Of a stretch of 64,000 bases of DNA, positions 5,711-49,700 are shown piece after piece. The position numbers and the translations under genes were made by a program. The notes under the pieces were generated by a model. That model saw only the letters and a list, made by a program, of their open reading frames with translations, made no database searches and was not told where the DNA came from. Source of the stretch: Convolutriloba macropyga (Eukaryota); NCBI RefSeq assembly GCF_964194025.1, contig NC_134476.1, positions 5,270,001 to 5,334,000 of the forward strand, in the 5' to 3' direction. Numbering within the stretch: the first letter of the stretch is position 1; each line of letters begins with the position of its first letter.

Positions 5711-6124
5711 ATGAGAACTTTTCACGAAAGCGTGAACGATTTGGAGGAGTGTCACTGTGAGATCTGTGCACCTTATGGTGTTTGGTTGTGGCTCCCCCTG
5801 TTGGAACGATGGTGGTTCAACCCAGCAGTGGGGAGTGTGCTCCATCCAAGAGTGGATATAGAGGAGGGGACAGTGGTTGAGCGTCGGGAGTCAGCCGCCG
5901 ACCCTCCTCCCAACAACTCACCAGCCACCAGAGACGAAGCTGTTAGCCCTCCACCATCCGACCCACCAACCAGCTCTCCTCAACAACTTCTTCGGATAGT
6001 GGTTCGGGCTTTGGCACCCGTTTCTCAACCGAGAAGAGGTCGCCAAAGGAGAAGCCGCTATCTGAAGAGGAGGCAAGCTCGGACAGTTGCTCGGAGACTA
6101 ATCCGTCAACTGTTCCGAGCGTGA
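5711..6124 (+). CDS. Polinton left-end protein, 137 aa (CxCxxC N-terminus, Pro/Ser linker, Arg-rich C-terminus); function unknown
   Basis: ATG-initiated, GC-rich ORF in AT-rich flanks. AATAAA overlaps the stop (6124-6129). Confidence 0.7.
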   Translation: MRTFHESVNDLEECHCEICAPYGVWLWLPLLERWWFNPAVGSVLHPRVDIEEGTVVERRESAADPPPNNSPATRDEAVSPPPSDPPTSSPQQLLRIVVRALAPVSQPRRGRQRRSRYLKRRQARTVARRLIRQLFRA

Positions 6125-6225
6125 ATAAACTGTATATATGTATATTTTTATATATATATTTTTCATCAGTAATAATTTACGTTATTGATGTCTTTTTATT
6201 TTAGCGAGAGAGAAAGAGATATAGT

Positions 6226-7885
6226 TTAGACATTGAATCTGGAAATGAGTGTTTGAGTTCATATAATACAAGCATGATTCCGGGCTGTTTTTTAAATGAT
6301 TTTGGGGGTAAAAATTGATGAAAAATTGTGCAAAAATTAGACATTGAATCTGGAAATGAGCGTTTGAGTGCATATAATACAAGCATGATTCCGGGGTGTT
6401 TTCTAAGTGATTTTCTGGGTAAAAATTGATGAAAAATCATGTATAAACTAGACATTGAATCTGGAAATGAGTTTTTAACCACATATAATTCAAGCATGAT
6501 TCCGGACTGTTTTTTAAATGATTTTGGGGGTAAAAATTGATGAAAAATTGTGCAAAAATTAGACATTGAATCTGGAAATGAGCGTTTGAGTGTATATAAT
6601 ACAAGCATGATTCCGGGGTGTTTTCTAAGTGATTTTCTGGGTAAAAATTGATGAAAAATCATGTATAAACTAGACATTGAATCTGGAAATGAGCTTTTGA
6701 CTACATATAATTCAAGCATGATTCCGGAGTGTTTTCTAAGTGATTTTCTGGGTAAAAATTGATGAAAAATTGTGCAAAAATTAGACATTGAATCTGAAAA
6801 TGATTATTTGACCACACATAATTCAAGCTTGATTCCGGGGTGTTTTCTAAGTGATTTTCTGGGTAAAAATTGATGAAAAATTGTGCAAAATTTAGACATT
6901 GGATCTGGAAATCAACGTTTGAGTGCATATAACACAAGCATGATTCCGGGGTGTTTTCTGAGTGATTTTCTGGGTAAAAATTGATGAAAAATCATGTATA
7001 AACTAGACATTGAATCTGGAAATGAGCTTTTGACTACATATAATTCAAGCATGATTCCGAGGTGTTTTCTGAGTGATTTTCTGGTTAAAAATTGATGAAA
7101 AATTGTGCAAAAATTAGATATTGTATCTGAAAATGATTAGTTGAGTGCATATAATACAAGCATGATTCTGGGGTGTTTTTTAAATGATTTTTTGGGTAGG
7201 AATTGATGAAAAATCACGTAAAAATTAGATATTGAATCTGGAAATGAGCGTTTGAGTGCATATAATACAAGCATGATTCCGGGGTGTTTTCTAAGTGATT
7301 TTCTGGGTAAAATTGATGAAAAATCATGGAAAAATTAGATATTGAATCTGGAAATGAGCGTTTGCGTGCATATGATACAAGCATGATTCCGGGGTGTTTC
7401 CTAAGTGATTTTCTGGGTAAAAATTGATGAAAAATCATGTATAAACTAGACATTGAATCTGGAAATGAGTTTTTAACCACATATAATTCAAGCATGATTC
7501 CGGACTGTTTTTTAAATGATTTTGGGGGTAAAAATTGATGAAAAATTGTGCAAAAATTAGACATTGAATCTGGAAATGAGTGTTTGAGTTCATATAATAC
7601 AAGCATGATTCCGGGCTGTTTTTTAAATGATTTTGGGGGTAAAAATTGATGAAAAATCATGAAAAAATTGGACACTGAATCTGGAATTGAGCGTTTGACC
7701 ACATATAATTCAACCATGATTCCGGGGTGTTTTCTAAGTGATTTTCTGGGTAAAAATTGATGAAAAATTGTGCAAAAATTAGACATTGAATCTTGAAATG
7801 AGTTTTTGAGTGCATGTAGTACAAGCATGATTGCGGAGTGATTTTGTAAGTAATTTTTGGGGTTAAAAAATGAAAAAAAAAAAGA
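6226..7885. repeat. Tandem array of 15 x 111-bp units inside the Polinton
   Basis: A CATTGAATCT-type anchor recurs at 6231, 6342, 6453, 6564, 6675, 6786, 6897, 7008, 7119, 7230, 7340, 7451, 7562, 7673 and 7784 (one unit is 110 bp). Confidence 0.97.
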
Positions 7886-7889
7886 TTTA

Positions 7890-7967
7890 TAAAAAATTCC
7901 ATAACTGGCAAAGAAACATCTTGAGACTGGCCTCAAGGTGTTTCTTTGCCAGTTATGGAATTTTTTA
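7890..7967. repeat. Palindrome/hairpin, 36-bp stem with 6-nt loop
   Basis: TAAAAAATTCCATAACTGGCAAAGAAACATCTTGAG-ACTGGC-CTCAAGGTGTTTCTTTGCCAGTTATGGAATTTTTTA; one mismatch (T:G). Confidence 0.95.
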
Positions 7968-22580: not shown

Positions 22581-23274
22581 TTCTAAAAAAAAAGAGATCA
22601 GTTTTTCTCCTATCGAAACAAGAGTTCATACACAAAAAAAAATCATCATCAAACGAAAACTTCATAACACTAACCTGATATCCTGCTGTTGTTTTTGCAC
22701 AATGTAGCTGATAAGAAGCCATAAAGAAATCCCTCAATAGAAGCTCTGAACACAGTTAAATGAAGGAGTAAAGTTGAAGTTGAGAAATGTAACTCCGAAA
22801 AAAACCTGAAATTTTCAAAGGTTATCAACTATTACACACAAAAAAAATTTTGTAATTGTAATAAGAATAAATTTACCAGGATGATCGAGTTTTGTTCCAA
22901 GTTCTTTACTTTAATCGCAGAAGAGATTCAATCAAACAATTATCTGAAAGAAAAATAGGACCATAATATATGGAGGAAAAAAATTATTTAATTATTCTCT
23001 TAGATAGTGGAACATATTCGACACAAACTTTTTCTGTAACAGGCAACAATTTAATTTGTTTTTAAATTGGAAATTGTCACCTATTTACAATTTGAGTTTG
23101 CATAAATTTTTATGACAAGTCAAGAATTAACAAAACAACAAAACTAGAATAATTTTAACTGAGCAGAATAAAATCGAAGGTGAAAAATATTTTTTGAGTA
23201 ACTCAATAAACATACAATCAGAAACAACAGATAATCAAACGCTTCCTCCAAACCCCCAATTTTTGAAAATGATT

Positions 23275-23758
23275 TAAATTTCAAAAACAAAAACTCAAGA
23301 TGTGACATAATTACTCCTGGAGATAATTAGAGTAATTAAAAACCCACGCCAATTAATTTCACATTTTAATATGACCTAAAATTTCAAAACCAAAATTCAA
23401 GATGTCACATAATTACTCCTCAGATAATTAGAGTAATTAAAAACCCACGCCAATTAATTTCACATTTTAATATGACCTAAAATTTCAAAACCAAAATTCA
23501 AGATGTCACATAATTACCCCTCAGATAATTAGGGTAATTAAAAACCCACGCCAATTAATTTCACATTTTAATATGACCTGAAATTTGTAAACCAAAATTC
23601 AAGATGTCACATAATTACCTCTCAGATAATTAGGGTAATTAAAAACCCACGCCAATTAATTTCACATTTTAATATGACCTGAAATTTGTAAACAAAAATT
23701 CAACCTGTCACATAATTACCCCTCACATAATTACAGCAATTAATTACCCACGCCAATT
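23275..23758. repeat. Right subterminal tandem array, 5 x 101 bp
   Basis: ACCCACGCC recurs at 23342, 23443, 23544, 23645 and 23746. Confidence 0.95.
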
Positions 23759-23815
23759 CTATTGTTCTCAAGTAAACACTTAATAACTACACAAAAATTG
23801 ATATTTTCCCCTCAA

Positions 23816-23877
23816 AATTTCAACCAATCAGGAGCGTCTCCGAACCTACCCCCCACATCTGCACCGACTATACTACT
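23816..23877 (-). repeat. Right terminal inverted repeat (62 bp)
   Basis: Reverse complement of 5153-5214 with one mismatch; followed by the TSD TCTATT. Confidence 0.97.
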
Positions 23878-30300: not shown

Positions 30301-33300
30301 TTGTCAACCAAATTAGAAAGTTTTTCCCGATATGTAGTATTGATATCAATTAGCCTAATTGTTGTAAAAAACTTGTTAAATAGTTTCATATTTGCAATAA
30401 TGATGACAAATGGATACCAAAGCATTCACAGCCAAGCGTATCAAACTATTCCTCCTCTGAGTTATCTGGGAAGAACTCCGGTTGCAAAAGCGTCCAGGAG
30501 AGGCTGTACGGAATTTAGTCCTGTAGCCGAAAACCCCGACGCTATCCTAGAAGCTATCATTAAAAATGGCATTAGAAATGCCATTACCGACATCGCGGCC
30601 CAAATGCAACAACAACTTGAAGCATCAACTGCACGTGCTGTCCAAGATTCCATGGCGACTTTTAAACAACAAGTCAAAACAGATTGTCCACCAGGAAAAT
30701 AGATGCTACTTGAAAACCCTGTCGGAAAGTGATGTGCACGAGTCGTACAACAGGCGAGATAATGTAAAAATTTTCAATCTCAAAATGTCCGAGGACAAAG
30801 AGTACAATGAGACTATTGAAAAAGTACTGGAAGTCATTGATCAAATCGAAGCAGTTGTTAAGGCTTCGGACATTTCAATTGCTCACCACCTGCCTGGAAA
30901 ACGCAATCCAATGATTGTCAAGTTCAATTGAAGGGTGGCAAAACTGGACCTTCTTAAGATCAAAAAGATACTGACAGAGGTGGACGACATGAAGTATATA
31001 AGTGTGGTCGAGATCACCAGACCCAGATTGAACTTCTTGAACATTATGCAAACTGACAACCGCATCAGAAGTGACTAGGTGCGTGAAGGAGCACTGCACC
31101 ACATGTGGAACAACACTCCAGTTCACAAAATTTTCGGGTTGTATGAAGGTGGCTCAGTGCTTAAGTACCTCCTCTTTGACGTCCTTGCCTGTTTCAAAGG
31201 TGTTTTTCCCCAAACAAAAACTCACAAGTCTCTTGAACCCCTCCACAAAACCCTACCCTCCCGTGATCAACCCTCTACATCTCAACCCACCGAGTTAATA
31301 TCTGTTTTGCATTTAAACATCCGCTCAATCAAGAACAATCTGCTGGAATTGGAAACTTTTATATGTGGACTTGAATCACTTTTCAAATCATATGCCTTAC
31401 GGATACACTTAGACGATGATGCTCATACTTTTAATTTTCTTTAGGCTGTTTACTCCAACATTGAGGTAAAAAATCGTGACAAATTTGGCGGAGGGGTGAT
31501 GATTCAAGTCCATGAGATTGTGACGATAAATAAAACCTTGCAAATTCCATTCGAGGAGGCAATATGTGTTGAAATTAACAGCCAATCATACACATTTAAA
31601 ATCTTGGTGATTTACAACAAACCTAGAACTAACAAAAACCAGTTCATTGAGTTACTTGATGAATATCCGCAAGGTAATACATCTGCCACAAACCCTTTTA
31701 TAATATGCGGGAATTTTCACATCAATACAAAACCTCAGAAATTGATTAGCAAACTACGTCGATAACAAATGCAAACGGCTTCAGTCTGTTCGATAGAGAG
31801 ACTTGTCATTCATCAACCTGCTTAAATCACTTCATCTACCAATATATTCCTTCATTTACATCAAATATCCTGTTCCATGAAAACATCGCAGACCATTATC
31901 CTATTCTAGCTAGTTAGTCGGCCAACGACCTCGATCACTGACGCTCAGTGTAAATTGCGAAATACAAAAACTATTCAAGATGAATCTCTGAGACAGCTCT
32001 TCCTGCAGGAACACCTATGTCTCAGGGAAGTTGAAATATTAAGTAGTAGTGATCCAAGCAGTGCTTTTGAAATCTATAACTCGAGTTTTATTAAGGTCTT
32101 TGATAAGTTTGCCCCAATGCAAAATGAAAAGGAAATCAAATCAAAATAACAAACCTAAATGGTGGACAAATTCCTTGAAAAACTTAAAACCAAACGTAAC
32201 AAAGCTCATAAAAATGGAAAAGTAACCCCAATAACCAAGATTATCTGGCGAATTTCAAAATCAGCTAAAAATTTTGAAAACGCATACAAAAAAACCAAAA
32301 AAATCTTACTATGCAGAGAAGTTTAATTCTTGCATTGGTGATTCACGACAAAATTCTCATTTACCTAATGAAATCAGTGGCAGAAGTTCGCGCTCAAAAA
32401 GATTCCTATTCTATCCTCTAGTTAAGAAGTGAACCAGTCATCCTCTCTCGTTGACGTGGCAGAAAAGTTCCATCAAAAATTCGTAAATGTACCTAAAACT
32501 ATTCGTCATTCGATCAATAACGTGCCTCCTATTCCCATTCCAGACAATGACAAGTCTTTATATTTATACTAGGTCTCAAAGTTTGAAGTTGAAGAGCTCA
32601 TTGAAAGCTTAGCTCACAAAACATCATCTGGTGATGATGGCTGAAGTAATACAAGAACTAAATTATCAGCCTCTGTTACGGTTCGCTTCATGACACACCT
32701 TATTGAATGTTCCTTCATACATGGACTCTTCCCCGAATCGCTCAAGAATGCAGAGATACTTCCTCTGCACAAAGAGAGCAGTAAGTTAGAAGAAAAAACT
32801 ACCGCCCTATTTCACTTTTAAATGTATGCAGTAAAATCTTTTAATGAGCTATGTATACAAGGTTATACAACTTTTTTGAGCGATTCGGTCTCGTCTCACC
32901 CTGTCATTTCGGCTTCGGAAACAAGCATAGCGCCATCGATGCTTTAGTTGAGTTAACGGAGAAAGTAAGCGAAAACAGGAATAATAAGAACATAAAAGGC
33001 TTCTTTTTGGATCTACGGAAGGCGTTTGATACACTTGATCACACAATTTTACTTTATAAATTAGAAAAATACGGAATCAGAGGTAAGGTTTTGTGTTGGT
33101 TGAAATCTTATCTTGGGAGCCGAATGCAAAGAGTCGAAATCAATTGCATGTCCTCGCAATGGTTAAAAGTACAACATGCAATACCACAAGGGTCTATACT
33201 AGGCCCCCTGCTTTTTCATATCTACATAAATGACCTACCAATCCATTGTAAACAAGCTCAAGTCCCCCTTTTTGCAGATGATACAAACCTTACGTTTTCT

Positions 33301-33678
33301 AATAACTCCTGAGAGGATGTGCAAAGAAATTGATAAAGTTAAACACTGGCTAGATGCTAATAAACTTTGTTTGAATGTTAAAAAGACCATTCAAATGAAC
33401 TTGAACTCAAGCGAAAATAGGTTTGATATTGATAACAAGTAAATTTCCATTGCGCTCGTATGTAAAAATCTCGGCAATTGAATTGATTTCAAAATTTCCT
33501 TTGTCTCTCATTTATCGGTGCTGAAATCGAGACTCTCGAAACAATGTGGTATTATTTCAAAACCTAGGCATTATGCCCCGCGTAACAAGCTCATTAATTA
33601 TTATAAAACGAATGTTATATTATCCAATATGCCAAACTAGTCTATGAGTGCATTAGCTATAGCAACCTGTTGCCCATT
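30301..33678 (+). mobile_element. Decayed CR1/L2-group LINE, 5' part (ORF1, APE endonuclease, RT)
   Basis: ORF1 ESYNRRDNVKI...ISIAHHL; APE LHLNIRSI, DHYPI; RT LDLRKAFDTLDH, PQGSILGPLLF, FADDT. Many stops and frameshifts; 5' boundary approximate. Confidence 0.9.
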
Positions 33679-34401
33679 ATACTAGAGGGTATGGGGGTGC
33701 GAGGTTTATCTTAAACTTCTGGCTCGAGAGTCGTACTCCAAGTATACGCTATCTTCTTAAACCTGATAGGTCTCATAAAAATATTTAATGATCTAAGTAA
33801 GTAAAGTTGACTAACTACTCTTGTTATAAGATTTATATGAGCTTTATAGAAATTTAACATAGATAAAATTACAGCTCAAGTTGTATTTAAATTTAAATTT
33901 ACAATTAAATTTAAATTTAAATTTAAAATTACAGCTCGAGTTTAAATTTAAAGTTATAAAAGTTAACTTATAAAGAGAAGGTCGGAAAAGTTAGTACAAA
34001 CTTTACTAACCTGAAGTTATTATCAGTTACTATTTATCTCTTCTTGAACAAAGTTCTGATTTGGATAATATCTCTAACTATTCTTTTATCGTAATAGTTG
34101 AGAAAAGGGTTTGGCAATTTCACTTTGAATTACTTTAAATTCGAAATTGCTTTCTCAAGTTGGAGATATTAAATTCTCAGTGTCTCTGAGTTATTAATTC
34201 TTAACTTCTCAAATGTTGTACTTTTTGCTTTGGTGTATATAGTTTTTATGACGGGATAATTCCTTTGCTGTTAGCTACACGGTAAAATGTCCATTGGACA
34301 TTTTACACAATGTGAATGGTTCAGCTAATTGCGTCATTAATTTTGAAATGATGTAATTTGAATACTTAGCTATGTAAGAATTAACTTGTACTTCAGTACA
34401 T
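33679..34401 (-). repeat. 3' LTR
   Basis: Direct repeat of 44699-45390, with substitutions and indels. Confidence 0.93.
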
Positions 34402-35109
34402 CCCGACCTGGTCTAAATGTAAATTTAGGTATAAATTTAAAGGTTTACAGTTACCGATGAAATAAGTTTTTTTCTCCCCGGCGAAAAATTCTCGTTGCCT
34501 CGAAGGTCGCCATGTCGGTAGTCTCTTAATTCTCAGCAGGCTTTCGTTGCGCTGCTGGAGCTGATAATTCTTATAACGCTCTTTGAGATAGATTTGTTCG
34601 AGATTTCGAATATAGCTGTTCTCTGAGCTTTCTAAGCTTGCAGTTAATAATTGAAACGGCACGGAGAGGACTTGTTTGTCTATACCTAAAATCTTTGCTC
34701 TGTGGGTCATTATTTTTGGATTATAGGATACCAGTTTGTAGAGATTAGCATGGTTTTGCAGTTTGTAATTGAGGGAAGTGTCGTACTTGGGGTGTCCTTT
34801 GAAGTTAGGACTTGAGACTAGTTCCTCGGTTTTAATTTGCCTCCTAATTTAGTCGTGTACCGTAAGGGGTTTTGGTAGAATTGCTGCTACTGGTGGTTGA
34901 AATTGCGAGGGTCCTGATTGTGGCTGTTGTTGAGGTTGCTCTGATGGTTGTTGAATATTTTGTTGCTCGTGTAATTGCTGTTCCTCGGTTATCAATAAGT
35001 ATAGTTCTATGATGTCGATCGGAACTTTCGATGGAGGCTGATCGATGGAGAAGAAGGTCGTTGTCGTCTAGTGCTATGTCTTAAAAAAATTATAAGTCTT
35101 TTATAGGTG

Positions 35110-37033
35110 TAATTAGTTACATATAATTACACTGGAGAGGTGCGGAAATCATCATTGTTAGATTGATTTTTTCTCTCTTGTCTAATTAAAAGTAGCTGAT
35201 AGTATTACTTTTCCAAAACTCACTGAGGCTCCTGTAATTTTATGTATTTGTAGCGCGCGTATGATGCAAACTACAATGTCAATTATAAATTTGACAAAGA
35301 AGAATATAGCGAAAGTACTTCCGCATTGCTCTAAGTAATAAGGTACTCGGTCGAAGGCCTTTATATACCGGTTATGTAAGAACTCTGACGAGATTAGAGT
35401 CTAAATATATTGTCTTTGTAGTGCAGTAGTTGCTATAATCACTAGGCTGGCTTTTGCTACGTTGAATTTTAACTAATTTTATTATTACAAATAATTTATT
35501 ATTTTCAATATCTAGTTGAAAAAGATTCTTTTGCTTGTTGTTACATGGTTGTTGTTTAGCAGTAGTAAAAGTTTGCCTGTAAAACGGATCGATAAATCTG
35601 AATTTTATTTTATATAACAAAGGTATTCTATCATAACAAGTATCCATTACTTTTAATGGCGAATAAAATTTCTGACACTGATAGAACCAGGCTACATTGC
35701 CATTTGTCTCAAGAAACATAGATCTGTTATTAGTTACCAGAAAACCAGCCAGTTTAGGGCTGAGACGCGAATAAGCAAGATAAGTATTTTTCAGTGAATG
35801 TTCTTGTTCACAAATTTGCTGTATAGTATTTATTTCAGTGAGTTGTGGCTTTCGGAAATTAGTGTACTGATAGTAGTCGAATTTAGTATGTAAGTGCGCC
35901 TCATAATCTATCTCTGTTCTTGATATATTAAGCGAAATTAGTGAATTGTTCGGGACTTTAGAAATTCTACTCACAGTAGGTAGAGGTTCGAGTGCCTCTC
36001 CTATATTCATATTGAATCCGCCTGAAAATTCAACGTATAGTTTGTCGTATGGTGAGGGATAAACTATTTTATTGCTATTCCATAGCGATTGAGATTTATT
36101 TTACACTTGAAATAGAAAGCTTTGTTCTTTCTCTGATTCTCTAGAGATGTAATAATTATCTCCTATTTTTATCATTTTGCCTTCAAATTGTTCTCCTATA
36201 GCGAACAAGCAACTATCTTGTTTCTCCCAAGTGTAAGCATGGGGGTCGGTTGAAGTGCTTTGACAACCGCCTTCTGAAAATGTGCAAGGCAGGGGAATAT
36301 TTTGACAGTTATTTACTGATCCTCACAGCAGGTTAATATTTAAAGTTGTATCCTGCATATACGTTTCAAACGTATCGTGAATTATCCAGCCAGAATCGTC
36401 ACAGTCATTTGGATTTTCCCCAATAATTGGACCGGAACTTTTAATGTAAGTTGTCCTTACATTTAATTTAATCGGAACTTCTTTTCCGTTAATATTTAAC
36501 TTATTAGTTAATCTAGCCTGCCTAAACAGATCTGGGTTAAATCTACGTGTGTGGTGATTTTACGTTTTGCATCAATCCCACTAGCGTCGAATACGCAGCA
36601 ATACCACCTAATGCTTTGGTGGCTTGCTCTACACATAGTGGTTTCTAGTTTGCCTCTAAAGAAACGGTTGAAAATTTGTCCTTTGACGTTTGAAATTTCA
36701 ACATTTTGCGGTTCAAATTTACAAGGAGCGACTTTGTTTAGTGAGTCCATAAGTGAATAATCGTAGTGAGCAACTTTTAATGATGTTGCAGTTTTTGCAT
36801 AAGGATTGGTGAGCGGATTTTAAATCTGAGGCTAAGTTTGAGCTAAGAATATTGAGATTTTCACAATTTGCACGGGACATAGATAAAATCAAAGTTATGC
36901 TCACAAAAAATTTTGTGATATTATCTATATGTTTATTTCTACATAGCAGAAACAGAAATATAAGAAGACTAACCTCATTGAAATTCCTTCTTGGATTTTC
37001 GGTTTTTATTACCTCTCCCTCCTCGGGGAACAA
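35110..37033 (-). pseudogene. Envelope glycoprotein, chuvirus-G/class III fusogen-like, disrupted
   Basis: Hydrophobic leader, Cys-rich ectodomain (QQICEQE...SPKLAGFL...GNVAWFYQC...CYDRIPL...FIDP), TM segment FAIFFFVKFIIDIVVCII near 35260-35320. Confidence 0.75.
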
Positions 37034-38298
37034 GAGGAACAGAGATTCAATTTCAGTATTCCTTTGTGAAAATGAATTCTAGAGTGAATGTGGTTTGGAG
37101 TGTGGATAAAAGATTCAGAAGAATGAATCGATTTAATTTAGTTGACACTTTATAGTGTTCTCAATAGCAATTTGTCCTTTCGCATGGATGGCAAAACACT
37201 GGTCTCTGATTGGTTAATTATTCCAACGTCATTTTGGATGGGAGGATTTTTGAATTTTGATTCAAGTATTTAAATGGAAATATTGAGTGCGGGTTACTAT
37301 TCGTCCAACTGTTGAAATATTCCATTCTGATTGGACAGAGCGAAAAAAAATTCACTGTTGGGAATATATTTCTATTTCTCTATAAATAGAGAAATTTTCT
37401 GAGTGTAATACTAGTCTAAATCTAATAATAATGTACAAAACTGTATTAAACCTGTTTAAAGAGACGAATTACTTTGCCTAAGTGCGCTTAGATTTGGAAT
37501 TACATGCCAGAGAGATGAGATTAATCCTCTCTTAGCAATATATATCTACTCAAATTGTCCTCTCTGAAGAGGAGTTTTATTCGCTGCAAGTTGCGCAGGA
37601 ACATTGTATAAAAAATAAAGAGAAAAATATAAGACATGCTAATATATGTCCTGCTACTATGCAGTATCTAAAAGGTTGGTTGGGGGAAGAGGTAAACTTC
37701 CTAATTTACAGTTCCGCAGGAATAGTATAAATAACAAAGAGAGAAATATAATAAGACATGCTAATATGTCCTCCTACTGTGCAGTATCTAAAATGTTGGT
37801 TAGGGGAAGAGGTAAACTTCCTAATTTATAATTATTTTTGGAAATATCGTGGGGTATAAATCTTTTTTTGAATTTTAATTCTAGCGTAAGCTAACAGCAC
37901 CGAACCCGGAGTGCCATGAAGCAATGATGAACTATGTATATGAGCTTTGGCGGGTGTGGTGGACCCCTGAGACAGCAAGAGCTGCCCAGAAACTATATGG
38001 TTTGGCTGCTCTCCTGGGATGTGGGCTTCTCTCTAGAGACTTGACTCTAACCCGAGAATTCATTAAACTAATTAAAGTTGCCAGGGCTCGATTATTATAA
38101 TTTTTGTGATTTTGGTTTTAAATATTTTTATAAATTGAATATTTTATTTTTGTAGTTTTTGGATATTTAAAAAAAATTGCATAAATGAATTATTTCTTTT
38201 GAACTTTGGGAATAAAATCTGATAGAATTGTATTCCCATAGCGTTTAGGTTCAGTCTGTGTTCTCTGCGGTCTGACATCAGAATATGTTTGGTGAAGA

Positions 38299-39800
38299 TT
38301 AGGTTTCGTTTTTACTGGGTGGGGGTTGAACTAATGATACGGCTAAATGTATGAGAATTGGATGTAGTACTTTGTGAACTACTTTGGGGGGTAAACAAAT
38401 TTCTGATATGTAGTATACTTTCACTATCGTTTCTATTTGTTTTGTATGGGCAGTTAGGCGCACTCCGGCACGTGCTAACAGTAGTTGAGTATTCAACTGG
38501 TTGCGGTGATGTTGTTCAGCCTGATTATTTGCGTTGTTAAAAATAGGCCACGGCATATATTCCGGGTTATCAATTGTTTGGTGATTAAATCTGTTTATTG
38601 AGTACTGGCTGAACCTATCATAGTAGGCCTTTGAATCATCATAGTTAGTACTATAGTCCTCTAACTTGTCTATTTCTTGTTCTTTAGGAGAGTATTCTAC
38701 TAAATGATTTCTCTGCACTACTTTCTTTTGTTCAGTCGAGTCGTGAACAATTTCAAATGTGTTAGTAATTTGTTTAGTAACAGTATAGGGTCCAGAGCGT
38801 AACTCTAGTAGCTTTTTGGATTTCAATAATCCTTTAGCTTGATTTTCTAGTAATACTTTAGGACCGATTTTGATCGGTTTACCCAATTCAAAACTGTTCC
38901 TATACTCGGGTGCTTTATTTGTAATTTGCCGACAGCGAGTACATGTTTTACTATATATATTTTTGAATTCGTTCTCGCGTTGTAATATAGTACTAGACAA
39001 TCGATTTTGTAGCTTATCTACTTTTCATTTCTACAGGAATTTTCACAGTGAGTATGTAATGGAAGGTCTGTACAATACTCTGAAATCCAATTCCTTCTAT
39101 TATCACGTAGTAAGCCAAGCTTGAGGAAATTGGAATTTGCGGTTTAATACCGAATACTATCTCGTACGGAGTATATCCTGTACTGTAGTTTATAGCAGTA
39201 TTATGCGCAAAAGCAAATTTATTTGTAAGACTAGCCCAGTTAGATCCGGTGTCGTTAATAAAGCTGCGCAAATAATTTGCTTTTCAACCTTGACGTTTGT
39301 CCAAGGTGAGTATGAAGTCCGCGGTTTTAATGTACTTCCAAATTCGTGCGTCCAGTGCACAAAATCATTACTCAAAAAGGCAGTACCGTTGTCATGTACT
39401 ATTTGCTGGGGAATTACGAACCGTGTAATGTATTTTTCTATTAATTTAACAGTTTCTGGTGCATCAGCGGTTCTTGATGGACATACATGTATAAAGCTGG
39501 AGAAACTATCTACTATGAGTAGACCAAAATTTCTTTTGGTTGCTACCAGGCCTAAGTGGGCTTTTGTGGTCTATGTGTATAGTATGAAATGGGGTTGTGT
39601 CTAATTCTCCGCACTGTTCTAAGGGTGCTTCGTTCAGATCATGTCTTTTTGGTTTATTTTTGGCAATCTAAGCAGTTATGAACCAGCATTGTAATCCATT
39701 AGTACATTCCGGGCCAAAAAATGAATCTACTAATATTGTTAAATGTGCATGTGTCTCCACGATGCCCACTGAGCGGATTATTGTGTGCTAACTCAAAGCA
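38299..39800 (-). pseudogene. Gypsy integrase, disrupted
   Basis: AHNNPLSGH zinc-finger start, DNGTAF, YSPWTN.KVE, TGYTPYEIVFG, GPYTV (GPY/F). Confidence 0.88.
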
Positions 39801-40649
39801 TTCCATAAATATTGATAGTGGAACACATATTTTTGGATCGTATAAACCGTTCTCGTCTGGTTTATTGTAACATAGTAAGTCATACTGTTCCTCAAGTAGT
39901 AGAAGGTTAAATATTTTTGGATGCGCGTAGTCCTTTACAATGCTTAATTTTACTTGCGCTCGGCAGTTCTTTACCTGCCTTTAGCCATTGGCGAACGGTT
40001 GCTAAAACCAGATCATTTATTTGTTCGCGCAGGATTGTATCTGTGTCTAGTTGAGCTTGTTTAGTGAACTCTGTTAATTTTGGTAGTAAGTCTTTACAAG
40101 ATACTTTAACTACTTCTGTATGCAGAGTTGTCGGTTCTAAAATGTCACATTTCTGCGTACGTTGCTTGTATTCCTCCTTCGCTTGTTCTGGTTCTTGTAT
40201 TAAAGACATCTACATTTCCTTTTTGAAATTCTAACAAGACTTCATCATAAAGACCGTCGTCTATTGCATGTACCTCTTCGGGTAATTCTTCGTATGTGTG
40301 ATCGTTAAGCCTTTCTGTAGATACATATTCGGAAGACATCTTTCTGATTTGATTTATTTGTCGTCCATATCTGAACGAGTCTGCAATGTTGTATATTGCA
40401 CTGCATGTCTGTTCTATGTCATCGCTTGCGTCGTTATTACTAAAGTCTTCGTCGGTTATATTTACTAATTTCTTTTTTTTGTCCGGGTATAAGTGCAATT
40501 ACCGGATAAATAGTATTTGGTGGTGCATTCTTTTCGTCACAGTGTAGTACCGAAGAGTTTATCGGTTTGTAGTCCGATGTGCAGAAGAGAATGTCCTTTG
40601 GGACTGTTTTATGTTCAATTTGAAACTTTCTTGCTTCTTCTTGTGGAAC

Positions 40650-41950
40650 TTGTCTACTAAGTAAGTCGGGGAAAGCAAGGTTTTTACCTTCAGTGTATAC
40701 GATCTTTACATTCTGAAATTAAGTGAGCACGACTTGGTACTTAAAGAATCTATGTAATAGTTATCCGCGCCGAGACCATAGAAATATAGGACTCTGATCA
40801 CAAAATAAGTATATTGGGTAGGGGGAGCCTATAATATACAACTCGTATGTTTGTAATGCATATATTATTCCGCGCAACTCTCTGTGCTGTGGGGACATCT
40901 TTCGTTCCGTTTTACTATATACTCGTGAATTTTCAGAAACAATTCGTTTGCCTTCGGGAAACTTGTATTAATATACTACCAGTCCCTTAATAAGAAGAAT
41001 CAGCGAGTATATGAAAGGGGTACTTTGGGTTAGGAGTAGCAACGGAAATATCGTGTGCAAATTTTGCTTTTAATTTATCGATTACTTGCTGGTGGCTATT
41101 CAGCCATTCGAAATTTGTTTCATTCTTGACTAAATTTTATAGTGGTTTTGCGTCAATATGATAATTTATAACATAATTTGCATAAAATCCCACTGCCTCT
41201 AATACGCTGAGGACGTCGGTTTTTGATTCTGGTGTTTCTCAAGTTTTGTATATCGGCAATGCGGGAGGTGATTGGGCTAAGTCCCTTTTGATATTGCATG
41301 CCTGAAAATTTTAATTTTCATAGGAATTTTATTTCATCCGGCGCAGCTTTTAAATTTGCTTTACGTAGTAGTGCATGATATTCACGTACTGCTGTAAACA
41401 TTTCTTGTTTATCTTGTGCTTGTAGTAGTGTACCGTCAATATACTTAATAGCTTACTTTTTCTTTAAGTGGTCCAAATGCATAACGCATAAGTTCGTTAA
41501 AAAAGTCTGGAAGGGGCTTAAGCCGTAGAATCCGACTTGAAATGCATATTGACGACCGCCTACAAAAAAACTAGTTAATTTCTGGGTTTCTTCTGTAAGT
41601 GGTTCTTGATGATAAGCGCACGACAAGTCACTACTTGTAAAATATGATCCATTTACTCGAGTCATCAAACTTGTAGTGGCTCGAGCGGCCAGGTAGAGTT
41701 ACTTGTATCTGTAATCGAATTGAGATAGCGAGCATCAATTACAAGTTTTACATAATCGTTCTTAGGCATTATAATAATTTGGTCTACAGACAGCTATTTA
41801 AATCGTCGTGCTCATTTAGCTCGCGTATTCGGCTTGTATTAATTCGTCCATTAATGCTTCAACTTCTCATGCAAATGTAGGGGGACTTTTCTGGGACGTT
41901 GCCTTTTAAATTCGCAATCCCTTTTAAAAGGTATATGAAGTCTCTGCTTT
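40650..41950 (-). pseudogene. Gypsy reverse transcriptase and RNase H, disrupted
   Basis: LVIDARYLN, FTSSDLSCAYHQ, YIDG (degenerate YxDD), RELRGIIYAL. Boundaries approximate. Confidence 0.85.
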
Positions 41951-42351
41951 ATACGCCCGATACCATATTTGTGATGGGAGTATACATACTCATCATCTAG
42001 CAGGATTTGTAATAGTTCTCTGAATTCATCATCCGTTAAATCACTGCGTGTGAAATCGAACATTTTAAGATACTGGATATAGTGCGCGTAGTTTTTACTT
42101 GCATCTTTTGGTCGTGTATTGAGTCCTTCTTGAACAACTTTACGAATAATGAAGTGATTTTGCTCAGTTGTTCTGAACTTGGGGAATTGTTCAATATTAG
42201 CGGGTTTGCATAACGTCTTTGCATCATTTGAGAAGTCAGTTGCTATTTCAGTATCGTTTTTACATTTGTCTACAATTTCATCACCAACCATTCCAAATAT
42301 CTCTTCGATGCTTTCATTTGTGTATTGTGTAGAGGACGGTATTTGGTTGAT

Positions 42352-42723
42352 TTACGCTTTACTCACATAAACATATACTATAATTCCCGAAGAATTAAAT
42401 ACATTGTATAGCAATGCAGATATCTCAGACCAGTCCACTTTGTCTAATCCGCATGCGATTTTTGGCATAGCTATACATCTAATGTTCTGCATTAGAAGCA
42501 CATTGCGAAGTTCAAATAGTGCAGTTGTAATACTTTCAATTGTCGGTTTACTATTATATTTTTCTTTAGTTATTAGACTAAAGATTTGGTGTCCGAGGCT
42601 AGGAGCAATGTACTGTAATACATTTTGGTTTATAGTATTTCCGTCACGATCGTTAACTTCTACTTGCCACTTACAAGGTTCTTTCAAGTTGGGAAACTTT
42701 TTACACAACATGACTGCAAAGCC
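42352..42723 (-). pseudogene. TARG1/OARD1-type macrodomain (ADP-ribose glycohydrolase-like) within Gypsy pol; N-terminus lost
   Basis: IFSLITKEKYNSKPT...IAMPKIACGLDKVDWSEISALLYNVF matches the OARD1/TARG1 pattern IYYLITKK...KPT...LSMPRIGCGLDRLQW...VF. Confidence 0.88.
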
Positions 42724-42998
42724 TTGTATAATCAAGATCAACCTACTTGTATAAACACCAAAATACTGAATACTGTTTTAACTGTATTTTTGTGCGGTAG
42801 AAAAGAAGTGCCTTTTGGGTAACATAAATCAGTATTTTGGTGTTTATACAAGTAGATTGATCTTGCTTGTATACAAATTGGTTGACTCAGAATTATCGCC
42901 TCTACTTCTGATAATTGTGGGTACTGTTATTCGTTATTCAACGTTCCATAACTGATTACTCCTGCGTGTTCTTTTAATTCTAGAGCAGGAATATCGAA

Positions 42999-44625
42999 CT
43001 ACAGAGCTTTAAAGAAAATATGACAGAAATCAACACCGACCAGGCTAGATGTTCCTTCCTGTGTAACCCGTACCTTATAGTTGGCTTCAATCTTTCTGTC
43101 TGTGTCAAAGTATGCGGTTACTGTAGTATGGCCTAGCATGCGAATATGGGATCCATTATAGGATTTTGTTATTTTTATTGCGGTGAATATCCTTATGCCA
43201 GGATTGAGTTTTTGCATTTCTAAAAATGTAGGGTAATTTATTATTGTACATGTCGAGCCTGGGTCGATTAGATACTCAAATTTCCTAATTACTTAATTAC
43301 TCAATTAATTACTTTTATTTATGTCTCCGATGGTGAAATAACACATATTTAATTAAATCCTAGATTTTGGATTATTATTTGTACTAACTTTCATAGTAAC
43401 CACTACTTGATGCTTGGAGTGTGCGATTGGGGGGATAGGAGCGTTGATAATTTTGATGTTCACGTTCATAATATTGTCTCGCTTCAGTTTCATGCGGACC
43501 AAATTGGTTGTTTTGGGGAAATTTTTGTTCATAGGATCTAATATTATTATTTATATAGTGTTTATTTCCATATCTGCGGTTGTCATGTCCACTATTAGTA
43601 TTATTTGGACGATTTTGGTTATTGAAATACGGCTTCCTGTTAGGTTGTTCCTTCACTATTGTTTTTTCTTTCTCCTTAGTAAGTTCTCTTTTCATTTTTC
43701 AAATCATTCATCAATCCTGCGTTTAGAGCAGTTAGAAAGGGAATGTCCATGATTACGTCAATAGTTACAAAAGCGTGTGTTATTCGGTCGGCCTTTTACG
43801 TTGGGGTCTTTAAGGGGCTTGGAGTTAATAGCTCTAACTTCGTTATTTCTAATTAGGCTAGTCAGTTCTTTGATTTGTGCTTCAAGGCTACTAATTTTAT
43901 CATTTGTTTGTTTGACTGTGCCGTCCGTGCTAACAGTAAATGTTAAGTCTTTAGTTATTAAGTGGTTTTGTATTTCGTCCCATGTTTTATCCGGATTTTC
44001 TATCCTATATTCATGCGCTTTGCGTTTAAGTGAGGGGGGTTGTAAACCTCTTATAGCAAAGTCAATATACTTTTGCTCCCTTTGTCTCTGCTGCACTGTT
44101 CTTTCAGTGGCAATTTGGCCAGGATCAGTTAATCGTGCGGATATTTTTTCAGGCCATCCTCAATCAACAGCATGCTTAATTCGGTGGAAATAATTTTTAA
44201 TTAGTTGCACCTTCAAACTCAAGTCGATATTTGAACTGCTCACGGCTATCTGTGAACCGATTTATGAAATCTCATTTCATTTGATCAAGAGTTCTTGTGG
44301 GGTTACTAGCATTGAACCACTCTAATGCGGTTTCTGCCAGTAAGGATCCAAATAGCGCTCTGCGTCTATTTTGGTGATTTGCTAATGCGGCAGCATCTGT
44401 AGGTAACGTTGTACCCAAAGAGAAGTTTATTTTTTGTTCTACCGAACTCAAAAATTCATTTGCGTTTTGTCTGGGTCATTTCCCGAGAATGTAACAAGTG
44501 GCATATTCGGATGAGAGAGAGGGGTATTAGTAAGTGTTCATACTATTGTAGCGGTACCGTTTGTTCCAGTACCAGTGCCACCAGTACCGGTGCAACTTCC
44601 TGTTCCTCCGCCTTAGGGCGTTAAC
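42999..44625 (-). pseudogene. Gypsy gag and aspartic protease, disrupted
   Basis: CCHC-like FCNY*RNHGHSLSNC near 43740; YLIDPGSTC (degenerate DT/SG) near 43260; LVGVDF. Confidence 0.8.
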
Positions 44626-44682
44626 TTGGTTTATTTTAAGTGATTACAGTTTTCAGAAGATAGAATATTTATGCGAGCCTAG

Positions 44683-44694
44683 CTGGTCGCACCA
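44683..44694 (-). promoter_or_regulatory. Primer-binding site
   Basis: TGGTGCGACCAG a few bp inside the 5' LTR; the TGG is complementary to tRNA CCA. Confidence 0.8.
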
Positions 44695-44698
44695 TTTT

Positions 44699-45390
44699 AT
44701 ACTAGAGGGTATGGGGGTGCGAGGTTTATCTTAAACTTCTGACTCGATGGTCGTATCTTCTTAAACCTGATAAGTCTCATAAAAGTAATTAATGATCTAA
44801 GTCAGTAAATTTGACTAACTCTCTATTGATAAGATTTATATTAGCTTTATAGAAATTTAACATAGGCAAAATTACAGCTCCAGTTGTATGGTTAAAAGAG
44901 TTTAAACTCAAGGTTATAAAAGTTAACTTATAAAAAAGGAGAAGGTCGGAAAAGTTAGTAAAAACTTTACTAACTTGAAGTATTATCAGGAACTATTTAT
45001 CTCTTCTTGAATAAGTTCTGATTTGGATAATATCTCTAACTATTCCTTTATCGTAATAGTTGAGAAAAGGGTTTGGCAATTCCACTTTGAAATACTTTTA
45101 TTTTGAGACTACTTTCTCAATTTGAAGACATTAAATTCTCAGTCACTCTGAGTTATTAATTCTTAATTTCTCAAACGTACTTTTTGCTTTGGTGTATATA
45201 GTTTTTATAACGGGATAGTTCCATTGCTGTTAGCCAGACGGTAAAATTTCCATTGGACATTTTACATAATGTGAATGGTTCAGCTAATTGCGTAATTCTA
45301 TTTTTAGAATGATGTAATTTGAATACTTATCTTAGTTAAGCTAAGTATTCTATATTCCAAATGTAAGAATTAACTTGTACTTCAGTACAT
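44699..45390 (-). repeat. 5' LTR
   Basis: Direct repeat of 33679-34401; adjacent to the PBS. Confidence 0.93.
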
Positions 45391-45827
45391 CATTTACATA
45401 CAAAAGAAAGGACTTAAACTCATTTATTTCAAAAAAAAGTCCGACAGTGCTTATGACATCTTTGTTAAAAAATAATATACTTAACATCTACCAGCTTCAT
45501 ATATACGAGTTATTGAAGCTAGTTTTTAAGTCATTGAGTGGATTACATCGTGAAAGTTACCTTAATTCTATGTTCTCGTATTCGCCAACAAGACCTACGC
45601 GAAGTGCATCAAAAACATTACTAATGGAAGCATCTTGTAAACGAATGATTGAAAAACGATCATTTAAACCCAGAGTTTCGAAGCTCTTTAATGCATTGAG
45701 GAAAGCCGATGTTCTTCCCTACAATATTATTGGATCAAATGTAAAAGTTACGAAAAGTTTTTATCATAAATTTAAGGATACAGTTTTGGTTAAAAACGAT
45801 GATATAGTGAAACACATCTTTGAATAA
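45391..45827 (+). mobile_element. 3' part of the interrupted LINE (ORF2 C-terminus)
   Basis: NILNIYQLHIYELLKLVFKS parallels KILTVFELHVYELLKFVLKS of the LINE at 53222. Confidence 0.88.
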
Positions 45828-46730: not shown

Positions 46731-49700
46731 CTAAATTCTAGAATTTCTCATTCTCGACGTGATTTCATCCTCGTCATCTTTGCTGTTCCGATCAGTCGTT
46801 TGCACTTTAGGGCCACCCATTGAAACATGTGCATCTGATTTGAGTCCTGATACGCCTTTAATTTCGTCCCATTTCAACTGTTGATCATTTTGACTGACAC
46901 GTTTAACTTTTCTCGCTCGTCCTGTCATATTTTGCCGGTACTGAACCATTCTGTTAAAGTCTATAATGTACACATAGCCACTGATCATAACTTCAAACTG
47001 GCCCAGTTCTGCCAAACTGTTCACGTTTTCGTCTCGACTCAATTGGGCAAATGAAGTTTTGGGTTTCTGATGGGACGTAGCAGGTTGATGCAGTAAACTG
47101 GGCTGAGATTTGATACTTTGGTAGGTTGTGTGGAACTTTTCCAGTTCTCTACTGGTTCGCTCATCGTATTCCCACCAACCTGAAAAGGTAAACCAAAAAG
47201 TGTATGCATTTCAAGGTTTTAAACGAGAACACCAAAACAACTGAGCATATAGAGATATAGAGTTGTTTATTCCGGACTGAGAGAATTGCGCGGGTTGTAC
47301 ATTACACGACTCTTGCAACTTTCCATGCAGCTTATATGCAGTTTGCTTTTTTGAACAAGTACATTTGATTTATCCGGGTTACCAGTGATCCGGGTTAATT
47401 GTTCCGACCCCCACTTTAGTGGGGAGGGGGGAACTATATACTCAAATGTTTTTTTCGTTCAGTAAATTTTGGCCGATCGATATATTCATCGCAGAGAGTT
47501 GAGACTGGTATCATTAGAAAGCTCGTCCAGCGTAGAATCTGGAATTAGAAAGATTTTTTTAATTTTCGTTTTTGACAGGGAGTAATCGATGTTTAAAGAT
47601 TTGTGAACATTCGAGTTTTTATTCACATTTTATGTAATTTTTGCTAAAACTCGGCTCAATTTTGCTAATATAATTTAAAATAAGTTAAAATTTTTAACGC
47701 TAGAGTGTTATTGTTACCGTTAGTAGAAGAGCGTTGCTGAACTGTTTGGAGATTTTTTTGGCTGGAAATTTTGATAACATTTTTGAAATTCAGACATTTT
47801 TCATCAAACAATGCACAAAATATGCTTTTTTGAACCACTTTGTTTAAGTTTGCCAAAATTGGAGAACTGAAATCCGGCGCCCTAGAAAAGTCATGTGGAA
47901 TTAAAATTTTGCCGTTTTTTCAAAATTTAAATCGATAATTATACGAAATGCATCATACATTTTTTTATTTTTGAAATATTTCCCGTAACAATTTGTCTCG
48001 TTCGCAAACATTTGAAACTCATGGGTGGTCTTTTGGACGCGTGCCATAATCAAGGATAGGTTTGGTATCATCAAGGATTCTTACAAGTTTTTTTAATTTT
48101 TATTTTGGTGCTGCCCTTTCAAAGCAATTTTGTTTTTATTGTTTTTTAATGCTGATTACTGACAAAAAAATTTCAAATCACGGCTCAATTAATGGCAACT
48201 CTCAATTACGTAAAAATGATGCCAACTGTAGATATAGTATGTTTTCAGAGAACAATGGTTTTATGGCTTTGAAGAAGATATTTAGTGAATTTTAATTGAA
48301 TTCTCATGTCTTGCATTCAATTATTACTCTTCGCAGTCTGAGTACTGGGTCGAGCTGAAAAAATCCAAATGGCTTCTTCGAGAGGTGTAGGTGAACCTCT
48401 ACAATGCATTCATTTGTTATCAAATGCCTTATGACACTGAATATATTTGTTTTAAGAAAATTTCAGTGATTTTTTGAACTTGTCAATTAATCATCTTATT
48501 TCTGTCAACTTTTACCTTAATTTCAGTAAATAGAGGTCAAAAATTCTCTCATAAAAGATACAAACTAATCTTTGCGGATCTTTTTTCATAATTTCAGCTT
48601 CTTGGTTTTGGTACTACATTTCGTACAAAACTGATTTTTGTGCATAATTGCCCATTTTTGCTGTTCTTTTTGTTTCTTTGTTAATTGTCACATTACTTAA
48701 CAATCAAACTAAAAAAGAGTCGCAAAAATTGTAACTGAATATACTTATTGTTTTCAAAGCCAATGATTTTAAGGGCTGCTACACCGTTCTCTTGCAGAAA
48801 TCTGTATAGTATTTTATATTTTGCCCTGTATTTGTTAATTTTTGTTGCATGCCAAATTTTGGACAATGAAAGAACTCAATGGCCAATAGACACGAATTAT
48901 TAAATGAACTTAATAACTGATATCAGTATATAACTAATGGTTTTATTGACTTTCAGATTAATTTTTTTCAGAAAAAATGAAAGAAATCTTTAACTTATCC
49001 ATTTTTGTTCTGATTTTCGTCTTTTTGTATTTTACAATTTTGTATCCACTTCGTTATTTAGCGTCATTATTAGGAGATCTTGTTTTTGTTTGTTGAATCA
49101 AACGATATAATTTTTCTTTTCGTTAAACGTTTTGACTGATGTCTTTGGGATTAGACGATTTGTTTAGGAAGAATAATGTCAGATTTAGATACTTTTCCAT
49201 TTTTGTAGTTTTTTTTGTTGTCATTTTGAGATAGTCGTTTTACAAAAAGACTATGATGTTCAAAGGAGACGCAAGTAAAGATTTAATTTTCTCGGTGTTA
49301 ATATTTTATAAATGTAATGGCTTCAACACGATGGTTTCGTAAAGTTGTTTGTGAAATTTCTTAGCTCTGCCTGTATTTAAAGTTATTTTATAGTCTTATG
49401 AGTTGGTCTCACTAATAACAGGCGCAATTACTTTTCGAGGAAGTTGCAAAATGAACTGTCTACTCATTAAGTCAAAACTGAGCTTATGTTGGCCATGAAT
49501 TTTGAAAACTCGCTTTTAAAAAAGACAATGAATTTCTGAGCTTTGCCAATCTTATTTCTGTTAACTTGTAGCTTAGTATTTCTATAGACAAGTCACATCC
49601 TTGACCTATTGAAATAAAATTTCCTCTTTATAACCGTTTTGTTTTCCTCGAATGGTTTCTGTCACAACGAGTTTTCATAAAATATTAGTGGTTTTTGTAT

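Follow-up and report, generated by a model that had tools for sequence, protein, structure and literature searches.

A conserved and probably spliced accessory gene behind the gB-type envelope gene of a Ty3/gypsy element in Convolutriloba macropyga

The DNA analysed here, referred to as the window, is a stretch of 64,000 nucleotides from Convolutriloba macropyga (NCBI RefSeq assembly GCF_964194025.1, contig NC_134476.1, positions 5,270,001 to 5,334,000 of the forward strand). It contains a broken Ty3/gypsy copy on the minus strand at 33678-45389, in which a tblastn map made with young relatives, together with Pfam domains, gives the order long terminal repeat (LTR), primer binding site (PBS), gag, protease (PR), macrodomain, reverse transcriptase (RT), RNase H (RH), integrase (IN), spacer, env, ORF4 (ORF, open reading frame) and LTR. 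An earlier note on this DNA had read the same order, with an extra ORF behind env, and had placed the element at 33679..45390; the element is there, with its ends one base off. Our analysis centres on ORF4, which is firmly identified as a genuine accessory gene. The features of the element and its target, in window coordinates, are:

44698..45389, minus strand: 5′ LTR, 692 bp, TGTACT...AGTATA on the minus strand
44683..44694, minus strand: PBS, complementary to the 3′ end of host tRNA-Met(CAT)
43429..44570, minus strand: gag, located by tblastn with a young relative (70-88% identity), with frameshifts and stops
42750..43409, minus strand: beginning of pol, including the protease (DPG motif); about 120 codons are deleted after it
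42355..42777, minus strand: TARG1/OARD1-like macrodomain, C-terminal two thirds retained
40646..41949, minus strand: RT and RH of Ty3/gypsy type, broken, ends approximate
38193..39926, minus strand: integrase (H2C2, core, p58_C/SH3_Tf2-like tail) and pol tail, broken
37118..37334, minus strand: predicted internal env promoter, from sequence motifs
37327-37334 and 37206-37213, minus strand: CCAAT boxes of the predicted env promoter
37146-37155 and 37118-37126, minus strand: TATA-like and initiator-like motifs of the predicted env promoter
35127..37070, minus strand: env, class III gB/chuvirus-G-type glycoprotein, broken
36968-36976, minus strand: predicted env splice donor, closing a short first exon
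34477..35080, minus strand: ORF4, predicted second exon of the accessory protein, broken by one stop and one frameshift
34401..34408, minus strand: purine-rich tract adjoining the 3′ LTR
33678..34400, minus strand: 3′ LTR, 723 bp
33674..33677 and 45390-45393: target site duplication (TSD), left copy CCAT and right copy TCAT, one mismatch
32848..33673, plus strand: decayed non-LTR (LINE, long interspersed nuclear element) reverse transcriptase, RVT_1 E 6e-20, the insertion target of the element

Of 2158 candidates found in the host genome with the env fragment, 150 are scored matches, which fall into tiers near 80%, 50% and 46% identity that correspond to families A, B and C; the genome also carries the more distant env families E, F and G. 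An open env frame of 782 codons is present in nine of the first 29 other loci (intact-copy search). Within the stretches taken, LTR pairs are 98.8-100% identical in 14 of 20 elements and 95% identical in one, with no pair in the remaining five, and young copies have exact 4-bp TSDs and overlapping gag and pol frames. The element family is recently spreading in the host genome.

ORF4 extends over about 34477-35080, where open stretches of 72 and 151 amino acids are two pieces of one gene. The extra 3′ ORF of the earlier note is a real accessory gene under purifying selection, but it does not reach into the LTR, the run there being a frameshift tail. In families A, B, C and E, ORF4 is the next gene after the env stop; a read-through product of env was rejected, since ORF4 has a different frame or is separated from env by additional stops. 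The dN/dS (nonsynonymous to synonymous rate) ratio of full ORF4 is 0.04-0.26 in all nine within-family pairs, while three between-family pairs are saturated, and the first 25 codons after the putative splice acceptor, upstream of any Met, differ by 0.07-0.10 at nonsynonymous sites (pN) versus 0.69-1.03 at synonymous sites (pS). A profile search collected 41 proteins, and a fused form was absent among the 14 longer hits. In another host, a distant ORF4 group shows the layout env-acceptor-ORF4 in three of four metagenome contigs and acceptor plus ORF4 in the fourth; because this group adjoins a homologous env, the layout is not confined to the host genome and extends beyond it. Two distant ORF4 homologues have no match in the host genome at E 1e-8. 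Also in the other host, the ORF after ORF4 contains a coiled-coil-like stretch with a weak TRAF/MATH match (E 1.3e-4, below the cut-off; L083:1434-2462, L084:773-1024). Database searches gave no Pfam match and no usable Atlas match for ORF4. A chance open frame would fit the lack of an early ATG in families A and C and of a Pfam match. That view is refuted by the purifying selection, including that on codons upstream of Met, and is further opposed by homologues 33-41% identical between family A and family B or C over the conserved part, by a well-modelled fold and by the same position in another host; we give it practically no credence.

The first Met of ORF4 stands at codon 36, 74, 83 or 107, or is missing. 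Directly before ORF4, 26 of 28 family A copies have a phase-0 AG after a T-rich tract, often itself part of an in-frame TAG, and the site recurs in families B and C. Because the codons ahead of the Met are conserved as protein and are preceded by this phase-0 AG, an upstream exon is very likely needed. Its candidate end is a phase-0 donor, GTAAAT or GTAAGT, that closes env codon 27, 28 and 17 in families A, B and C, respectively, just ahead of a hydrophobic stretch; the ORF4 of family E has its own ATG, and there the env donor segment is lacking. These signals make it likely that ORF4 is expressed from spliced RNA, although the env-codon donor is less sure than the need for an upstream exon. 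A first exon derived from gag was rejected, with no phase-0 donor scoring at least 8 in the leader or gag of five correctly framed family A copies. A GT..AG joint from env to ORF4 is absent among the 15 of 36 joints listed from four sequencing runs of unknown kind over one stretch, which has no bearing on expression. No spliced genomic copy was found among 24 loci checked, and a comparison of the positions of 40 + 40 first-exon hits revealed no obvious one either; copies without env are plain deletions.

For env itself a spliced mRNA had been expected, but the sequence is rather suggestive of a promoter of its own for env, inside the element, combined with splicing of ORF4. The 450 nt before the env ATG contain no acceptor-like site in seven of eight elements. 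In families A, B, D and E, and not in C, F, F2 or G, a TATA motif and an initiator-like motif 28-30 nt apart stand below CCAAT boxes ahead of env; in 5000 shuffles, this arrangement arises 9 times for A, 4 times for B and 0 times for E. The dyad GGGA-N6/7-TCCC of family B is present four times in the U3 region of the LTR, twice in the internal promoter and nowhere else in the element, and GGACGG/CCGTCC of subfamily A1 likewise occurs four times in U3 and twice in the internal promoter, both motifs having been chosen by eye. In an unbiased test, the sharing of private dyads between the internal promoter and U3 was equalled by 0 of 300 controls for A1, B1 and B2; words of 9-12 nt common to the whole LTR and the spacer remain at chance level.

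Family A copies comprise three ORF4 types up to 23% apart, with env differing by 1-6%. ORF4 type 1 and promoter type 1 are found in exactly the same 11 copies, and types 2 and 3 match less cleanly. Promoter distances follow ORF4 distances (Mantel 0.71, 0 of 3000 permutations) but do not follow those of env, which lies between the two (-0.02, 0.05). The set holds 27 family A copies, the window copy and one deleted copy being left out, and these are related copies rather than independent events.

The conserved part of ORF4 is predicted to fold as a helix, a four-strand barrel and a long helix (predicted local distance difference test, pLDDT, 88). The N-terminus is acidic-hydrophobic in families A, B and E, not in C, and the tail in families A and B has 12 D/E and 0-2 K/R in 45 residues. 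The barrel matches are generic, with SH3, Tudor, KOW and chromo folds among many tied families (best Z 6.4, root-mean-square deviation 2.0 over 54 aligned residues), and Foldseek gave no match for it at E 0.001. The dimer prediction scored 0.37 against 0.49 for a control.

In foamy viruses, the accessory gene tas (Bel1) lies between env and the 3′ LTR, and its product activates an internal promoter as well as the LTR; for HERV-K Rec and HTLV Tax, the first exon is short and lies where env begins. By analogy, the best single model for ORF4 is a Tas-like transactivator of the element's two promoters, to which we assign a probability a little short of even. Gag-Pol would be made from the LTR by a -1 frameshift. 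The internal TATA promoter would give an RNA that is read as Env when unspliced; joining env codons 1-27 to the acceptor behind the env stop would give the ORF4 protein. This protein may bind palindromes that are private to the family and present in both U3 and the internal promoter, its acidic tail serving to switch these promoters on. Tas, Rec and Tax belong to Retroviridae, no sequence or fold link to ORF4 was found, and in foamy viruses it is tas/bet rather than env that the internal promoter serves. An invertebrate Ty3/gypsy lineage could have evolved a complex-retrovirus control circuit independently, comprising an alternatively spliced env-promoter RNA, a transactivator that is self-specific and represents a new protein family, and private palindromes in the LTR and internal promoter, inherited as a module while env and pol were exchanged; we put this wider proposal forward tentatively and with more doubt than belief.

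Several observations weigh against the transactivator model and its splicing step. The GT of the predicted donor doubles as an env Val codon, rival donors exist in the leader or LTR of families B and C, family B has a Met at ORF4 codon 10, and the case for splicing consists of sequence signals and selection. DNA binding is a prediction, as the barrel matches are generic. The sharing of dyads fails for A2, A3 and E (53, 50 and 300 of 300 controls), and that of 6-mers holds in A1 and A2 and fails in A3, B1, B2, E and the window copy; the three ORF4 types of family A keep much the same motif despite their distance in DNA. Family C has ORF4 and lacks a TATA-initiator pair within 450 nt of env, three other ORFs being present there. 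Finally, an env sweep through older lineages could give the same linkage between promoter and ORF4.

The generic barrel bears on other roles as well. ORF4 may act as a chromatin reader or anti-silencing factor. Its Tudor/chromo-like barrel would then bind either a silencing protein of the host or modified histones, and host factors would read the palindromes. Many of the weak fold matches are to Tudor, chromo-barrel, PWWP and BAH domains, related barrels retain an invariant Y, W and W, and deeply diverged ORF4 types on a near-identical env (dS about 2 versus 0.05) fit a conflict with the host. Anti-silencing proteins of transposable elements are known (VANC, PMC12859917; this and the papers below are cited for the sections covered). 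However, both tryptophans are not retained in families A-C, all Z scores are below 8, and the family-private motifs in both promoters are not explained by chromatin reading itself; we regard this role as unlikely. Where env is removed by splicing, the element has to control its unspliced RNA, and ORF4 could be a regulator of the Rev/Rec/CERV kind that exports or stabilises unspliced genomic and env RNA. HERV-K Rec, which shares the env start, is a likeness counted here in favour, and KOW/NusG barrels are among the fold matches. CERV of Cer1 is a spliced, gypsy-encoded export factor (PMC10309623), but its described domains differ from those of ORF4, whose conserved acidic-hydrophobic tail fits activation better, and RNA regulation leaves the linkage to the promoter region unexplained, making this role quite improbable.

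More doubtful still is a role unrelated to gene control, for instance as a decoy in signalling or a component of the particle; ORF4 would then be a real protein, and the promoter signals would be by-products of lineage history. The weak TRAF/MATH match in the ORF next to ORF4 in the other host would agree with this, as would the unrelated 3′ ORFs of other env families in the host genome; the acidic tail, basic helix and barrel of ORF4 and the sharing of dyads in three subfamilies speak against it.

The env fragment at 35375-36100 matches PF24664 (Monjiviricetes_fusion) at E 5.6e-9, and relatives with an open env frame match it above the cut-off at E 1e-31 to 1e-36. In Foldseek comparisons of the env model, every listed PDB match is herpesvirus glycoprotein B (gB; best E 9e-12), and the top viral matches are chuvirus G (E 4e-31) and xinmo- and related glycoproteins; the model is itself weak (pLDDT 59, TM 0.2-0.35), which counts against it. 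Env dN/dS is 0.11-0.35, indicating purifying selection. As far as the family match and model comparison tell, env is a class III glycoprotein of gB/chuvirus-G type, not baculovirus/paramyxovirus F-like, as the earlier note had proposed.

The Ty3/gypsy assignment made there holds as well. Pol has RVT_1, RT_RNaseH, Integrase_H2C2, rve and Integrase_p58_C in the order PR-RT-RH-IN, and Ty3 is the best PDB match of RT-RH (195 bits). Three Pol proteins gave no BEL Pfam family at E 0.5, and in a comparison with the genome's own BEL loci (10 of 14 open stretches listed) RT-RH reaches no more than 0.3 bits. LTRs, a tRNA primer site and a short TSD are all present. The element is a member of Ty3/gypsy (Metaviridae), not BEL/Pao. 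The RT tree comprises 15 rows without named references, 24 of 32 database hits having been left out because the anchor motif was missing.

The macrodomain had also been called correctly. The window fragment alone is weak (E 0.0046), but the corresponding region of a relative matches human TARG1/OARD1 (PDB 4J5R, 4J5Q) at E 8e-19 over 135 residues. The likeness to TARG1/OARD1 is one of sequence and motifs, the element's domain sitting inside Pol, after the protease and before RT. In such macrodomains, the Lys and Asp motifs have a catalytic role; the ITK and GLD motifs are retained in family A, family C and the window copy and altered in family B, and the domain probably takes off ADP-ribose marks. 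Families A, B and C have this domain, as do nine of the 32 Pol proteins taken from the database, whereas E and F lack it. A dUTPase-like identity for the stretch after the protease was rejected, as neither Pfam nor PDB gave a match.

The window copy is dead, as had been noted: many frameshifts and stops, three large deletions affecting pol and env, a missing env start codon and an ORF4 acceptor out of phase were found. Its LTRs differ at 52 of 658 aligned sites (7.9%; Kimura two-parameter distance 0.084) with 11 gaps, within the 5-10% plus indels estimated by eye. The PBS sequence gave 94 pattern matches to host tRNA gene 3′ ends against 0 for the control, and three of the four matching genes found in two loci were called tRNA-Met(CAT). 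The tRNA-Met-like primer gene lies in long tandem clusters (host genome C1:77.67-77.77 Mb and C4:55.03-55.13 Mb). Read by eye, the LINE seemingly resumes after 45393. The pol-env spacer carries a 120-bp tandem duplication at 37644-37833, and elsewhere the window has tandem arrays at 6089-7941 and 23220-23825 with units of 111 bp and 101 bp. At a distance of 1.3 kb from the element lies an exon of the host that encodes a WWE domain (46731-47210, minus strand, E 3e-11), a module that binds poly(ADP-ribose).

Other copies and families vary in structure. Family C has three tandem ORFs of 104-112 codons between pol and env and more ORFs behind ORF4, without Pfam matches (L043:7644-8596, L045:7690-8648, L044:5092-5938). 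Families F and G have another kind of small ORF behind env, likewise after T-rich AG sites (L051, L056-L062). In one element with LTRs 99% identical, gag is followed directly by env without pol (host genome C13:3.13-3.15 Mb; L056, L076, L077). At L103 and L104 (C6:70.40 and 70.60 Mb), an LTR, a primer-site stub, the env tail and ORF4 form units repeated in tandem, and the joint of this type of unit recurs in three of four sequencing runs. L107 and L109 are young family B deletion derivatives in which env is lost and ORF4 still open; one of them has gag fused in frame to the env tail.

The combination of gag, pol and a gB-type env in a Ty3/gypsy element, which had been put forward as an independent capture, is already published. 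Chary and Hayashi (PMC13524379) describe 1512 Ty3/gypsy elements that carry env, among which the gB type is as common as the F type and stands beside gypsy pol across metazoans; because they argue for an ancient and widespread capture, a gB-type env in Ty3/gypsy is not new. Their HSV/gB-type ‘ancient errantiviruses’ (HSV, herpes simplex virus) resemble the element in the LTR-gag-pol-env layout, Ty3/gypsy pol, gB/chuvirus-like env, many near-identical copies and tRNA primer site. The main text of that paper does not mention a macrodomain, accessory gene or splicing, and a post-env ORF and internal promoter are absent from the sections covered. BEL/Pao elements with a chuvirus glycoprotein (PMC7642597) share the env class, whereas the element's Pol is not BEL/Pao. 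In Oikopleura Tor3b and Tor4b (PMC4402516), env is expressed from an internal promoter, placed in the pol-env spacer of Tor4b by 5′ rapid amplification of cDNA ends, whereas here the promoter is predicted; unlike for our element, the covered sections mention no spliced gene behind env. Like the ORF4 model, CERV of C. elegans Cer1 (PMC10309623) is a gypsy-type regulatory protein made from spliced RNA with a start common to a structural gene; CERV shares the Gag start, has other domains and serves RNA export, in contrast to ORF4 behind env with its predicted env start. Macro domains in fish endogenous retroviruses (PMC4977317) and extra ORFs in rotifer elements (PMC5408684) are also on record. 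No description of a layout with gB env, macrodomain, post-env spliced ORF and internal promoter was found in the literature searched.

The earlier idea of a complex-retrovirus-like element thus stands as regards a conserved accessory gene behind env, and not as regards the novelty of its env, so that the interest lies in ORF4 rather than in the envelope type, even though parts of the arrangement have precedents in the Tor internal promoter and Cer1 CERV. Surveys of gag-pol-env elements miss conserved genes that lack their own ATG. Should ORF4 be a spliced transactivator, Metaviridae would have acquired viral-style transcriptional self-control on their own, with a small DNA-binding barrel that is new, and the element family would offer natural pairs of protein and site, as between families A and B.

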